From positions 1 through 20,912 of the forward strand of contig JBGQJI010000034.1 of the NCBI GenBank assembly GCA_041498975.1: DNA of 20,912 bases, written 5' to 3'. The DNA is from Candidatus Methylomirabilis sp. (GTDB lineage: Bacteria; Methylomirabilota; Methylomirabilia; Methylomirabilales; Methylomirabilaceae). Shown here piece by piece: positions 2,667 to 7,377 of the stretch. Made by a program: the position numbers and the translations under genes. The notes beneath the pieces are model-generated. The model had not been told where the DNA came from. It saw only the letters and a list, made by a program, of their open reading frames with translations, and did not search any database. Every line of letters starts with the position of its first letter. The stretch's first letter is position 1.

Positions 2667-2923
2667 GCATCTCCTAGAGTCATCCGGCAGACGGGTTTCG
2701 GCAGGGGGATGTGGCGCAAAAGAGTGGAGCGAATCGCAGGAAAACAGGATGTTAGCGGATTTAGGCCACAGGAAGGTGGTCACCGAGCTTCTGCAACAAA
2801 ACCGATGTAGATACTTAAAGCGAAGTAATATACATAATTGTAGGCGTCGCCCAGGGGCCGGTTGGCTATCTTCTAGGCAAGAGACGGGACGTGATGCTTA
2901 ACGGCGACGCATGTCGGAAAGAC

Positions 2924-3724: not shown

Positions 3725-4465
3725 TTAACCTTCGAAGCGGAACTCTTTGATGATCCGGTACTTTTGCATCTTGTAGGCAAGCTGTCTTGGCGTGATCCCT
3801 AGCCGGGTGGCGGCTTTCACCTGAACCCCGCCGGTTTCCTTTAAAGCCAGCATGACTAGCTGCCGTTCGAGCTCGCGCAGGCCCTTCCGAGTGTCGAGCG
3901 TGTGAAGGCTGTGCGCCTGTTCCTGGCGCACCCTCACCGCGTGTCCGATCAGAGATGCCACGACGGTCATCACCCGAAGATCTTCTTCTACCGAGGACCG
4001 GGCATCCCGGGAGGGGCGCTCGACGCTGAGAACACCCAGGACCTCCCCGCCGATCTTGATCGGCAGGCAGATGAAGGCGATCCCATGCAGATCTCGAGCC
4101 TCGCGGGCACGGGTCTTGTTCAGAAAGTGGGGCTCTTTGCTGATGTCAGGGATGACCATCGGGACGCCCAGCTTCATCACCTTTCCGGTGATGCCTTCTC
4201 CCATCCGATAGTGGCCGCGACGCCGCTCCTCGTCGGTCAAGCCGAACGCCGCCTCAATGCCGAGCTCCCGGCGTTTCCGGTCGTAGAGGCAGATGGTGCC
4301 TTTCGTCATCCCCATGAATGAGTTGAGGATTCTGAGGATGGCCTCAAGGCTTTTCGGGAGATCGATCGGGTCGCCCAAGATCTTCGTCACCTCATACAGG
4401 GCGCTGAAACCGACGGTCCTCTGATCAAGCCGGGCCTTTTCGTTGCGCATCGCCATGGTAGTCAT
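3725..4465 (-). CDS. NifA-like regulator made of GAF domain plus Fis-type HTH, lacking the AAA+ sigma54-activation domain
   Basis: NifA-type GAF (YRMGEGITGKV, ISKEPHFLNKT, AFICLPIK, GVLSVER) joined in frame to a NifA-type HTH (LERQLVMLALKETGGVQVKAATRLGITPRQLAYKMQKY). No Walker A or GAFTGA motif. Start uncertain (ATG at 4465, 4456 or 4450). Confidence 0.85.
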   Translation of the reverse strand: MTTMAMRNEKARLDQRTVGFSALYEVTKILGDPIDLPKSLEAILRILNSFMGMTKGTICLYDRKRRELGIEAAFGLTDEERRRGHYRMGEGITGKVMKLGVPMVIPDISKEPHFLNKTRAREARDLHGIAFICLPIKIGGEVLGVLSVERPSRDARSSVEEDLRVMTVVASLIGHAVRVRQEQAHSLHTLDTRKGLRELERQLVMLALKETGGVQVKAATRLGITPRQLAYKMQKYRIIKEFRFEG

Positions 4466-4470
4466 CCCAT

Positions 4471-4485
4471 TCAAGATCGGTGCCA
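4471..4485 (-). promoter_or_regulatory. Possible internal sigma54-like promoter for the GAF-HTH gene
   Basis: Minus strand TGGCAC-CGATC-TTGA: perfect -24 element, -12 element GA instead of GC. Confidence 0.4.
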
Positions 4486-4532
4486 GTACACGATGCCCGT
4501 TCCGTTGAGCTGGCCGGGCATCGTGTGCTGGC
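4482..4532. repeat. 18-bp inverted repeat (hairpin) between amtB and the GAF-HTH gene
   Basis: GCCAGTACACGATGCCCG (4482-4499) and CGGGCATCGTGTGCTGGC (4515-4532), 17/18 complementary, 15-nt loop, no U-tract. Confidence 0.8.
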
Positions 4533-4541
4533 GTCGCGCGC

Positions 4542-5921
4542 TCACAACGCGTAGGCGTTCTCGTCGTGCTGGCTCAAGTCGAGACCGGTCTGCTCCTCCT
4601 CGTCGCTGACCCGCAGGCCCATCACTGCATCCACGATCTTGAGCAGGATGGTCGTTCCCACGATCGCCAGCACCCAACTTCCAAGCACGGCGACCGCTTG
4701 TATCCCCAACTGGCCCGGGTTCCCGAAGAACAGTCCATCCGCGCCGTCGGGGTTGATCGCCTTGGAGGCGAACAGCCCGGTTGCCAGGGCTCCCCAGGTT
4801 CCGCCGACGCCGTGAACGCCCACGACGTCGAGCGAGTCGTCGTAGCCGAGCTTTGTCTTCAGAATGCAGGCGGAGTAACAAAACACCCCTGCGCCGGCTC
4901 CGATGATGATGGCCGGCATCGGGCCGACGAACCCGGAGGCCGGTGTGATGGCCACGAGGCCGGCAACCGCGCCGCTGGCGGCGCCGAGGACGGTTGGCTT
5001 ACCCCGCGAACTCCATTCCGCAAACATCCAGGCGAGCGTCGCGGCGGCCGTGGCGAGATGGGTGACGACGAAGGCGCTCGTCGCCAGCCTGTTGGCCGCA
5101 ATCGCGCTCCCGGCATTGAAGCCGAACCAGCCGAACCAGAGGAGCGCTGCGCCCGTGACCGACATCGTCAGGTTGTGGGGCGGCATCGTTTCGTTCGGGT
5201 AGCCGCGGCGCCGGCCGATGATCAGCGCCGCGACAAGGGCCGAGACCCCAGAACTGATGTGCACGACGGTTCCCCCGGCGAAGTCAAGGGCTCCGAGCTT
5301 CCGCATCCAACCCCCGACGCCCCACACCCAGTGGGCGAGCGGGTCATAGATGAAAGTGGACCAGAGGATCGTAAACACCAGGAACGAACTGAACTTCATC
5401 CGCTCCGCGAATGCGCCGGTGATGAGCGCCGGGGTGATCACTGCGAACATCATCTGATACACCATATAGGCCTGATGGGGGATGGTCGCGCCATAATCGG
5501 GATTCGGGTCTAGCCCCACACCGCGGAGTCCGACCCAGGCGAGACTTCCGATAATTCCCCCCTTGTCGGGGCCGAACGCGAGGCTGTAGCCCCACAATGC
5601 CCATTGAATGGTGATTACGGCCAGGATGATGAAGCTGTGCATGATGGTCGCCAGGGCGTTCTTCCGGCGGACGAGACCCCCGTAAAACAGGGCGAGCCCG
5701 GGGGCGGTCATCAGTAGGACGAAGGCGGAGGACGTGAGCATCCAGGCAGTGTCTCCCGAGTCGATCTTCGGCGGGGCTGGAGCGGCTGGTGCGGGTGCTG
5801 GCGCAGTGGAGGGAGCTGCAGGAGGCGGCGCCTGCTGGGCAAGGACCAGTGTCGGGACAATCAAGAGTACTCCCCACAACATCAGGAGGATCGAAACGTT
5901 TAGCAGCGGTCGTCTTGACAC
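4542..5921 (-). CDS. amtB: Ammonium transporter AmtB
   Basis: GTG start with SD GGGAGGAG. Signal peptide and Pro/Ala linker, then GDTAW, PGLALFYGG, YQMMFAVIT, AHWVW, DFAGGTVVH, WFGWFGFNAGS, DDSLDVVGVHG (twin His) and LRVSDEEEQTGLD. Confidence 0.97.
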   Translation of the reverse strand: MSRRPLLNVSILLMLWGVLLIVPTLVLAQQAPPPAAPSTAPAPAPAAPAPPKIDSGDTAWMLTSSAFVLLMTAPGLALFYGGLVRRKNALATIMHSFIILAVITIQWALWGYSLAFGPDKGGIIGSLAWVGLRGVGLDPNPDYGATIPHQAYMVYQMMFAVITPALITGAFAERMKFSSFLVFTILWSTFIYDPLAHWVWGVGGWMRKLGALDFAGGTVVHISSGVSALVAALIIGRRRGYPNETMPPHNLTMSVTGAALLWFGWFGFNAGSAIAANRLATSAFVVTHLATAAATLAWMFAEWSSRGKPTVLGAASGAVAGLVAITPASGFVGPMPAIIIGAGAGVFCYSACILKTKLGYDDSLDVVGVHGVGGTWGALATGLFASKAINPDGADGLFFGNPGQLGIQAVAVLGSWVLAIVGTTILLKIVDAVMGLRVSDEEEQTGLDLSQHDENAYAL

Positions 5922-6015
5922 AGTGGCTCCTCCCTTCTCGTTGTCGAACGAGAGAGAACCTCAGCTAAGGTGGTAAGCGACAGTATTGTCGAGAACACTT
6001 AATCCGCGTTGATGA

Positions 6016-6030
6016 GCAGTTTTTGTGCCA
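6016..6030 (-). promoter_or_regulatory. Sigma54 (-24/-12) promoter of amtB
   Basis: Minus strand TGGCAC-AAAAA-CTGC, near-perfect consensus about 95 nt upstream of the amtB start. Confidence 0.85.
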
Positions 6031-6225
6031 TTGGGTCATCACGATGTGCATGGTCGGGAAACCCCAGAAGCTGCCATGAACGCTGATGAGGGGCGTGGTT
6101 CTTTTCGTGGCAGCGTGTATTTCCCTACAACGCGTCGGACCTCCGTGACACCGAAATGGGCAGGCTGGTCTCGTGGTGCTCATAACTTGGGCGAGGTCGG
6201 CTGAGAAGGGCCAAGGCCTTTTTCC

Positions 6226-6254
6226 TTGACAAATAATAAATCCTTGATAATAAT
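6226..6254 (+). promoter_or_regulatory. Sigma70 promoter of the perR-rbr cluster
   Basis: TTGACA (6226-6231), 17 nt, AATAAT (6249-6254), in an AT-rich patch. Confidence 0.75.
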
Positions 6255-6261
6255 CGTTATC
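6243..6261. promoter_or_regulatory. Fur/Per-box-like operator overlapping the -10 element
   Basis: CTTGATAATAATCGTTATC matches GATAATGATAATCATTATC at 14/19 positions, directly upstream of a Fur-family gene. Confidence 0.7.
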
Positions 6262-6328
6262 GTTCAATGCGATGAGACGACGAGCGGAATGTGGATATGA
6301 AGAATGTGAAAAAAACGGGATCGGGGCC

Positions 6329-6772
6329 GTGAAGCTGTCGGTCGAAGCGATCACGGACCGGTTTCGAGAATCCGGTCGGAAGGTGACCCCTCAGCGGGCC
6401 GCGGTGTTCGAGGTGGTCTGCGAACATGGCGGCCACCCGACGGTCGATCAGATCTACCGGCAGGTTCGGAAGCGTTTTCCGATGATCTCGCTCAACACTG
6501 TCTACCAGATCATGGAGGCACTGGTCGAGATGAAGATCGTCTCCCCTGTCGGCCATGGACAGGAGGCCGCCCGGTACGAGACTGATCCGACATCTCACCA
6601 TCACGCTGTCTGCATTACCTGCAAGCGAATCATCGATATCTTCGACGCCGGCCTTGGACGGATCAAGCCCCCGCGGGCGATCGCACAGGATCAGTTCCAC
6701 GTCGTGGGTCATCGAGTGGAGTTTTTTGGCTATTGCGCTGACTGCCAGGCGGCAAGGGAAGTCAGTCGCTGA
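6329..6772 (+). CDS. perR: Fur-family transcriptional repressor, PerR-like
   Basis: TPQR, HPTVDQIY, ISLNTVY, HHHAVCITCKRIIDI (Asp at the PerR-type position), GYCADC. Upstream of rubrerythrin. Likely start GTG 6329 (track start 6272). Confidence 0.85.
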   Translation: MKLSVEAITDRFRESGRKVTPQRAAVFEVVCEHGGHPTVDQIYRQVRKRFPMISLNTVYQIMEALVEMKIVSPVGHGQEAARYETDPTSHHHAVCITCKRIIDIFDAGLGRIKPPRAIAQDQFHVVGHRVEFFGYCADCQAAREVSR

Positions 6773-6930: not shown

Positions 6931-7377
6931 ATGGGAAAAAGTCTGAGCGGAACCAAGAGTCATGAAAACCTCAAGAACGCCTTCGCGGGGGAGTCCCAGG
7001 CGAACCGCCGCTATCTCTATTTTTCGCGTGTGGCGGATATCGAAGGCTACCCTGACATCGGCGGCCTTTTCCGCGACACCGCCGAGGCGGAGACCGGCCA
7101 TGCGTTCGGCCACATGGACTTCCTCAAGCCGGTTGGGGACCCGGTCACTGGCGTTCCCTTCGGGAGCACCGAGAAGAACCTGAAGTCGGCCATCGAGGGC
7201 GAGACGTATGAGTACACGGAGATGTACCCGGGGATGGCGAAGACCGCCAGGGGAGAAGGTTTCGAAGAGTTGGCGGAGTGGTTCGAGACCCTGGCCAAGG
7301 CGGAGAAGTCACATGCCGGTCGGTTTACCAAGGGGCTGACCCAGATCGCGGGCAAGGAACCCGCGGCGGCGATCTAG
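6931..7377 (+). CDS. rbr: Rubrerythrin, short form without rubredoxin domain
   Basis: [51 protein letters not shown] diiron motifs. No C-terminal CxxC pairs. Confidence 0.95.

Follow-up and report, generated by a model that had tools for sequence, protein, structure and literature searches.

What can a protein do that resembles an activator of sigma54 promoters in its sensor and in its DNA-binding domain, and lacks the ATPase domain needed to open such promoters? This question is raised by contig JBGQJI010000034.1 of Candidatus Methylomirabilis sp. (GenBank assembly GCA_041498975.1), whose positions 1 to 20,912 constitute the window studied here. A gene on the minus strand, placed directly after the ammonium transporter gene amtB, codes for a NifA-type GAF domain joined to a Fis-type helix-turn-helix (HTH) domain of the HTH_8 family, with no AAA+ domain. 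An earlier note, made from the DNA letters, had proposed that its product is a nitrogen-sensing repressor or anti-activator of sigma54 promoters that competes with a full-length paralogue. We find an intact GAF-HTH_8 gene under selection. The mechanism that we consider most likely, with modest confidence, is one in which its product, modulated by a ligand, represses the sigma54-dependent amtB operon through a dyad in the amtB leader.

Domain architecture of the regulator

The gene and its domains are as follows.

3725..4465, minus strand: GAF-HTH_8 regulator gene without an AAA+ domain (stop codon 3725-3727)
3935..4363, minus strand: GAF domain of NifA/Nlh type, residues 35-177 (Pfam PF01590, E 1.8e-16)
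3881..3934, minus strand: linker, residues 178-195, the end of a long helix that continues the GAF C-terminal helix in the AlphaFold2 model
3758..3880, minus strand: Fis-type HTH_8 DNA-binding domain, residues 196-236 (Pfam PF02954, E 1.6e-14)

The open frame (3725-4474, minus strand) measures 249 amino acids (aa) when read from a TTG codon and 246 aa from the ATG at 4465. In an alignment of ten orthologous intergenic regions, the ATG at 4456, which is the fourth codon, is kept in 10/10 loci, and the true start is probably this one, giving a protein of 243 aa. The HTH_8 match over residues 196-236 scores 53.8 bits against a gathering score of 22. By Pfam, the protein has neither Sigma54_activat (PF00158), a model with 16 matches elsewhere in the same genome, nor a receiver domain (Response_reg), nor the CodY and IclR families. 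The best NCBIfam model is NifA (TIGR01817), at 144.4 bits against a cut-off of 528.85, and it matches in two stretches, which cover only the GAF and the HTH. Compared with NifA and other bacterial enhancer-binding proteins (bEBPs), the regulator thus has the N-terminal NifA-type GAF and lacks both the AAA+ domain and the whole-protein score; compared with Fis-type DNA-binding proteins, it has the C-terminal HTH_8, and the receiver (REC) domain of the RegA/PrrA type is missing.

The earlier note was right in describing an intact GAF-HTH frame without Walker or GAFTGA motifs, and the linker and the GITPRQLAYK helix that it quoted are both present in the protein. It was also right to report neither a frameshift nor an AAA+ remnant, as a search of the regulator's own genome gave no other piece.

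Conservation, selection and assembly integrity

Hereafter G000 denotes the window's own genome, other G numbers denote compared genomes, and L numbers denote loci. A word-indexed protein search yielded 54 homologous clusters, 48 of which combine GAF and HTH_8 with no AAA+ family; most are 229-254 aa long, within a range of 144-292, and the source names, where given, are NC10 or Methylomirabilis. Among 201 Methylomirabilota genomes searched, the intact short form is confined to Methylomirabilis (G000, G068, G121, G071, G046, G006 and G005), with two further copies, in G097 and G080, split by contig ends.

The ratio of nonsynonymous to synonymous substitution rates (dN/dS), estimated by the Nei-Gojobori method over 36 pairs of nine sequences, has a median of 0.115 at a dS of about 0.93, far from the value near 1 that the earlier note had named as a refutation, and the frame is open in every copy. 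By region, the ratio is 0.09 for the GAF, 0.10 for the HTH and 0.23 for the linker. On these values, a pseudogene was rejected.

The earlier note had also allowed for a recent deletion or a misassembly, and had pointed to the junction near 3880-3930 as the place to look. In four further public runs, Logan contigs extend over at least 3749-4499 and run through this junction without indels and without joints inside the gene; all joints listed in the contigs of these runs fall inside amtB. Together with the independent assemblies of eight genomes, they exclude both possibilities, and close relatives carry the short gene at this place too, rather than a full-length one.

A second copy of the gene lies on contig C215 of G000, after an amtB 3' end, with 86% protein and 82.5% DNA identity to the window's copy. 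Given that its dS is 0.165 to the G121 copy and 0.73 to the window's copy, it may come from a co-binned relative rather than be a paralogue. The amtB 3' end and the regulator form a module on C215 (1-972, L014), followed by a cation-efflux-like gene. In G046, a lone fragment (L103, 1012-1128) in a 59-aa open frame, 92% identical to regulator residues 207-245, is found 2.2 kb downstream of the intact gene.

Linkage to amtB

The gene that precedes the regulator is the following.

4542..5921, minus strand: amtB ammonium transporter gene, first of the presumed operon (Pfam PF00909, E 6e-134)

The regulator gene starts 79 nt downstream of amtB. Wherever both genes are visible (nine loci in eight genomes), the short gene comes right after amtB on the same strand, in 9/9 cases, and amtB is the only neighbourhood gene that the nine short-form loci share. 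The earlier note had remarked that the gene sits where glnK often does, next to amtB. The linkage to amtB stands, but a displaced glnK does not, given that the relatives also have no glnK here. The sole P-II gene found in G000 is glnB, beside glnA on another contig, and the genome has one rpoN.

Descent from a full-length activator

Two other families have a long form of the protein, with the GAFTGA motif: the sister family, f5, in 11 of its 15 genomes, and f6 in one of two. The best matches to the window's protein in these families are 47-56% identical over residues 3-204, within open frames spanning 363-716 aa. Two of these frames, L090 and L082, were translated in full and are 561-aa GAF-AAA+-HTH proteins with GESGTGKE and GAFTGA. 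Identity between the short and the long form is 50-55% for the GAF and 52-59% for the HTH. With BLASTP, the window's protein aligns to long-form residues 24-213 (50%) and 502-551 (52%); the roughly 290 residues skipped between them are the AAA+ domain and its linker, and the place that AAA+ occupies in the long form is taken by linker residues 178-195 in the short one. For the recognition helix, the short form has TPRQLAYKMQKY and the long form TPRQLGYRMRRH. As for gene order, the long gene is followed by a P-II gene and then by an amtB that belongs to another type and shares 36-40% identity with that of the window.

In a maximum-likelihood tree of 43 GAF rows, the eight short NC10 rows make up one clade (support 100/100), whose sister group consists of the NC10 long forms and one metagenomic bEBP (92/94). 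Three rows from outside NC10 (L041, L043 and L046) are placed outside the NC10 clade. These comparisons indicate that the regulator descends from a NifA/Nlh-like sigma54 activator by clean loss of AAA+.

Other short GAF-HTH_8 proteins (P0084, P0135, P0151, P0161 and P0183) fall in at least three other places of the same tree, among full-length activators, and the loss of AAA+ has therefore occurred several times. The ESM Atlas holds clusters of 50-238 members, 230-270 aa long, with GAF and/or HTH_8, in Acidobacteriota, Thermodesulfobacteriota and Pseudomonadota. Since short GAF-HTH_8 clusters occur in other phyla, the architecture is not restricted to this lineage. A search of 201 genomes with the family profile gave no short forms in Acidobacteriota: 51 genomes matched at E <= 1e-12, one of them the unpublished genome G252, on which no other result depends, and all the frames were at least 352 aa long. 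Two metagenomic NifA-like proteins, P0089 (371 aa) and P0113 (387 aa), have most of AAA+ after Walker A deleted internally, and may be either intermediate forms or assembly artefacts.

A mini form without the GAF domain

In three genomes, the gene after amtB codes for only 90 aa, an N-terminal helix of about 38 residues fused to the HTH. The loci are as follows.

L107, 5911-6189: mini form of G004
L108, ~1750-2020: mini form of G066
L111: mini form of G007

The boundaries of the GAF deletion are identical in all three and their dN/dS is 0.22-0.28, which argues that the GAF sensor was shed once and that the Fis-sized remainder is still under selection. NC10 might then represent a living three-step series of domain shedding, from a 561-aa enhancer-bound activator through a 243-aa ligand-gated repressor to a 90-aa sensorless DNA binder, a proposal that we make tentatively and regard as possible rather than probable.

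G066 also has a 141-aa open reading frame (L092, 1384-1809) in which an unrelated N-terminus is joined to regulator residues 145-246. It is not beside amtB and adjoins a DUF2249-hemerythrin-like gene, a neighbour also found in G004.

The amtB promoter and the leader dyad

The amtB upstream regions of nine species were aligned, and the following features were located in the window.

6015..6030, minus strand: sigma54-type promoter of amtB, TGGCACAAAAACTGCT (exact pattern match)
5978..5991, minus strand: 14-bp dyad CGACAATACTGTCG, a candidate operator at roughly +14 to +27 relative to the inferred start
6145..6192, minus strand: two conserved islands, GCCCAAGTT..AGCA and CTGCCCATTTC..GTCA, about 140-190 nt upstream of the inferred start (nine-species alignment)

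The motif TGGCAC-N5-CTGCT, which we take to match the sigma54 -24/-12 consensus, is invariant in 9/9 aligned leaders. Some 24 nt past it, at a fixed offset, KACA-N4-TGTM is present in all nine as well, while the flanking leader sequence diverges. The dyad is placed at about +14 to +27 because the -12 GC at 6017-6016 puts the start near 6004. The site at 5978-5991, which the earlier note had suggested for binding assays, is therefore a real and conserved dyad on the minus strand, just downstream of a conserved sigma54 promoter. A leader hairpin before the amtB ribosome-binding site was considered and rejected, as it is not conserved in the alignment.

The same half-sites recur in the long-form loci. 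A sigma54 promoter, GGCAC-N5-CTTGCC, precedes the P-II gene in eight of nine of them (six distinct sequences; L081 is the exception), and in those eight, about 105-145 nt further upstream, TGTCG and CGACA half-sites alternate with a spacing of 4. One such array reads TGTCG-AAAC-CAACA-AATC-TGTCG-TTTC-TGACA-AAAA-CGTCG, with the half-sites and the 4-bp spacing of the Methylomirabilis dyad. The dyad is thus found in the enhancer region of the long form and in the leader of the short form's operon.

Within G000, 33 strict sigma54-like sites were found. ACA-N4-TGT occurs within 60 nt downstream at the amtB site only, and within 300 nt upstream at none of the 33. Across genomes, the dyad is intact in all ten leaders that belong to an operon with an intact HTH: eight with a full-length regulator (in G080, the gene is cut by a contig end and its HTH is on another contig) and two with the 90-aa form (G004 and G066). 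Of the three leaders without such an HTH, two have a degenerate dyad: in G007 the recognition helix is changed too (PPRPLAYKIHNH), and G003 has lost half of the dyad and has no regulator.

The two islands at 6145-6192 loosely resemble NtrC-type dyads, and would probably be the enhancer of a different bEBP, the true activator of this promoter. The genome has at least 14 bEBPs.

Between amtB and the regulator gene, the scan found no terminator-like site. Two features are located there.

4482..4532, minus strand: conserved intercistronic stem-loop with no U-tract (RNAalifold on eight loci: 17 pairs, nine with compensatory changes)
4471..4485, minus strand: sigma54-like TGGCAC-N5-TTGA, a one-mismatch match directly before the start codon, conserved in 8/10 loci

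The 5' part of the second overlaps the 3' arm of the first. Together they may be an element for mRNA stability or attenuation, an internal sigma54-like promoter, or both.

Predicted structure and candidate ligand of the GAF domain

AlphaFold2, run on an alignment of 17 sequences, gave a model with a mean predicted local distance difference test score of 78 and a predicted template modelling score of 0.65. It consists of an N-terminal helix (residues 3-31), the GAF core, and a 32-residue helix (159-190) running into the three helices of the HTH (193-210, 215-222 and 226-235). The closest solved structures, by Foldseek and HMMER, are the GAF domains of Aquifex Nlh2 and Nlh1 (E 1e-33 for Nlh1) and of NifA, and NifA structure 9qq6 matches both the GAF and the HTH of the regulator. 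No solved chain that joins such a GAF to HTH_8 without AAA+ was found among the matches of these searches.

According to PMC9866876, the GAF domains of Nlh1 form back-to-back dimers through the signalling helix, and Nlh1 is thought to act on nitrogen assimilation, its ligand being unknown. The same source gives a dissociation constant near 60 uM for 2-oxoglutarate and the GAF of A. vinelandii NifA, with binding abolished in the F119S variant. This F119 aligns to F114 of the window's protein, and the same Phe is also found in Nlh1. As for the regulator's own ligand, 2-oxoglutarate is a guess from this alignment.

Proposed mechanism and alternatives

Our preferred reading is that the regulator would be a one-component, ligand-sensing DNA-binding protein. 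amtB and the regulator gene would be co-transcribed, probably from the sigma54 promoter and with activation by some other enhancer-binding protein, and a dimer of the regulator probably binds CGACA-N4-TGTCG in the amtB leader. The footprint of a sigma54 open complex reaches about +20. Bound at the dyad, the regulator would block open-complex formation or promoter escape, which would amount to negative (auto)regulation of the amtB-regulator operon. Its GAF domain would tune the affinity for DNA to a signal of nitrogen status; 2-oxoglutarate would be the leading candidate, with repression released under nitrogen limitation. The long activator presumably uses its half-site arrays as an enhancer, and the short protein would have inherited this DNA specificity; in Methylomirabilis, the site would have been relocated to the leader, and a protein bound there should stand in the way of sigma54-RNA polymerase. 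The repressor role put forward in the earlier note is plausible because the conserved dyad at 5978-5991 lies just downstream of a conserved sigma54 promoter, and we retain that part of its proposal while setting aside the competition with a paralogue.

Several observations weigh against this reading. The chief one bears on an exclusive link between regulator and dyad: G008, a complete one-contig genome, has a perfect dyad, CCGACAAAGATGTCGG, in its amtB leader and no regulator. Neither a short nor a mini form was found in it, and its best HTH match, 48% identical, is part of a 478-aa bEBP. The motif is also only weakly enriched in the estimated non-coding DNA of G000, where 24 of 73 KACA-N4-TGTM sites fall in about 24% of the genome. 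Moreover, only 9 bp separate the half-site centres of the dyad, a short distance for an HTH dimer. The hairpin and TGGCAC-N5-TTGA behind amtB could mean separate or attenuated expression of the regulator rather than simple co-transcription. As for the ligand, F114 is present in 13 of 17 aligned family members, as a general motif of NifA-like GAF domains.

Six of the 24 non-coding sites of G000 were inspected. Those on C48, C76 and C26 are actually coding (the last in an enolase-like reading frame), the one on C12 sits within a sigma70-like promoter, in its spacer, and the one on C87, before an Rrf2-type gene, is probably that protein's own site; nothing could be assigned to the one on C19. With these six of 24 inspected, G000 shows no second convincing target and no other intergenic full 14-bp dyad in a convincing promoter context.

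Because G008 keeps the dyad without the regulator, another protein may bind it, and the alternative that fares best is built on this: the dyad would belong to another regulator, and the GAF-HTH_8 protein would have other targets or act on amtB expression in another way, for instance as an architectural factor resembling Fis, or by activating sigma70 promoters in the manner of REC-HTH_8 proteins. HTH_8 proteins without AAA+ that work on sigma70 promoters are known (RegA/PrrA and Fis), and the window holds a palindrome at an enhancer-like distance from a sigma54-like site.

2831..2842, no strand assigned: weaker palindrome TACAATTATGTA, about 170 nt upstream of the sigma54-like TGGCTC-N5-CTTGC at 2652-2666

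The earlier note had named 2830-2843 as a second site for binding assays; a palindrome is indeed present there, but TACAATTATGTA is the weaker match. It reads TACGATTTTGTA in the single relative that shares this gene order, and in a shuffle control 8/100 shuffles gave at least two such matches in the window. However, the dyad recurs in the enhancer region of the long form, linkage of the regulator gene to amtB is strict, in G007 and G003 the decay of the dyad goes along with that of the HTH, and no further intergenic full dyad turned up in G000. We consider this alternative unlikely, though it is the one to be taken most seriously.

A second alternative builds on the earlier note: the short protein would compete with a full-length NifA-like paralogue of the same cell, or act as its anti-activator, either at shared enhancer sites or through mixed dimers of the GAF domains. 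Its HTH and GAF are clearly homologous to those of the long activator, whose enhancer region has the same dyad. Yet the long form is found in f5 and f6 only, and no full-length paralogue with the same recognition helix was found: 18 Methylomirabilis genomes, four of them 99-100% complete, have no match in a frame longer than 291 aa. In G005 and G006, both 99% complete, the short form was found and the long one was not, which comes close to refuting this alternative. The runners-up in G000 are a GAF of 29% identity in a 1354-aa frame and an HTH of 53% identity in a REC-AAA+-HTH protein with a different recognition helix. Finally, the dyad lies downstream of the promoter and not at enhancer distance, so competition appears quite improbable.

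That the gene is a functionless leftover of a decaying activator gene might be read from its absence in G003 and G008 and its further shortening in G004, G066 and G007, but is very improbable indeed given a dN/dS of about 0.1 at a dS of about 0.9 in nine sequences, all frames open, and of 0.22-0.28 even in the 90-aa form.

Relation to known regulators

In common with NifA, Nlh1 and Nlh2, the regulator has a homologous GAF, a homologous Fis-type HTH and a context of nitrogen assimilation. It differs from them in lacking AAA+ and GAFTGA, so that it cannot remodel sigma54-RNA polymerase, and in having its candidate site in a transcribed leader instead of an enhancer. The NifA site is TGT-N10-ACA, whereas the candidate dyad is CGACA-N4-TGTCG. 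The 561-aa long form (L031-L039 and L080-L091) is the nearest relative, being linked to amtB and having the same half-site motif near its target promoter; unlike the regulator, it has AAA+ with GAFTGA, is encoded upstream of glnK-amtB, and has its arrays upstream of the promoter.

RegA/PrrA/ActR and Fis likewise use a Fis-type HTH without an ATPase, and the 90-aa mini form is Fis-sized, but the regulator senses through a GAF and not, as RegA/PrrA/ActR do, through a receiver domain. For Fis, an origin from the C-terminus of NtrC has been proposed. With regulators of the CodY/IclR type there is a likeness in that a small-molecule-binding GAF or GAF-like sensor gates a repressor, which is an analogy and not membership, since their DNA-binding domain is an unrelated winged helix. 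A paper on the CodY GAF appears among the references of PMC9866876.

Full-text literature searches gave no description of a GAF + HTH_8 architecture without AAA+ or of this protein, and a search on nitrogen regulation in Methylomirabilis yielded none either. The available part of Francke et al. 2011 (PMC3162934) classifies activators without a sensor or without a DNA-binding domain and names no type that lacks AAA+. MphX was considered as a precedent and rejected, as it is not a truncated bEBP according to the available part of PMC3063778.

Other features of the locus and of related genomes

The sigma54-like TGGCTC-N5-CTTGC at 2652-2666 is kept in the single relative whose genes are ordered in the same way. 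It precedes a 62-aa, winged-helix-looking open reading frame (2391-2576), which lies ahead of a BBP2/OmpL-type porin gene (933-2354). On the other side of amtB, a Fur-box-like sequence, GATAACGATTATTATC (6246-6261), overlaps a sigma70-like promoter at 6226-6254 that matches 11/12 hexamer positions. It is located before a divergent Fur-family gene (6272-6769) and a rubrerythrin gene (6931-7374), and is conserved in the five closest relatives.

Elsewhere in G000, contig C145 (1-1403, L023) has a fragment of a second amtB type, which in the sister family accompanies glnK. A REC-ANTAR gene comes after the fragment, an arrangement that suggests antitermination control. Such control is reportedly exerted by GnfR in Geobacter. 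In G008, two GAF-plus-coiled-coil proteins of 230 and 259 aa are encoded beside an ANTAR-domain gene (L094, C1 ~1,464,700-1,471,400); these two GAF matches were rejected as family members, being GAF-only, with no DNA-binding domain, and adjacent to the ANTAR gene.

Implications

Databases label these proteins "Nif-specific regulatory protein" or "VnfA", which is misleading for a protein unable to activate sigma54. To our knowledge, sigma54 promoters are usually described as controlled by ATPase activators alone. If the proposed mechanism is true, the regulator would be a dedicated repressor derived from an activator, reading the ancestral motif downstream of the promoter, and thus a testable case of rewiring by domain loss. 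If the three-step series is true, it would show an activator turned naturally into a repressor within the bEBP family, and would offer a model for the origin of Fis-like proteins from activators of the NtrC/NifA type. For Methylomirabilis, nitrite-dependent methane oxidisers with no glnK beside this amtB, the proposed mechanism, if true, would provide a first handle on the regulation of nitrogen metabolism.

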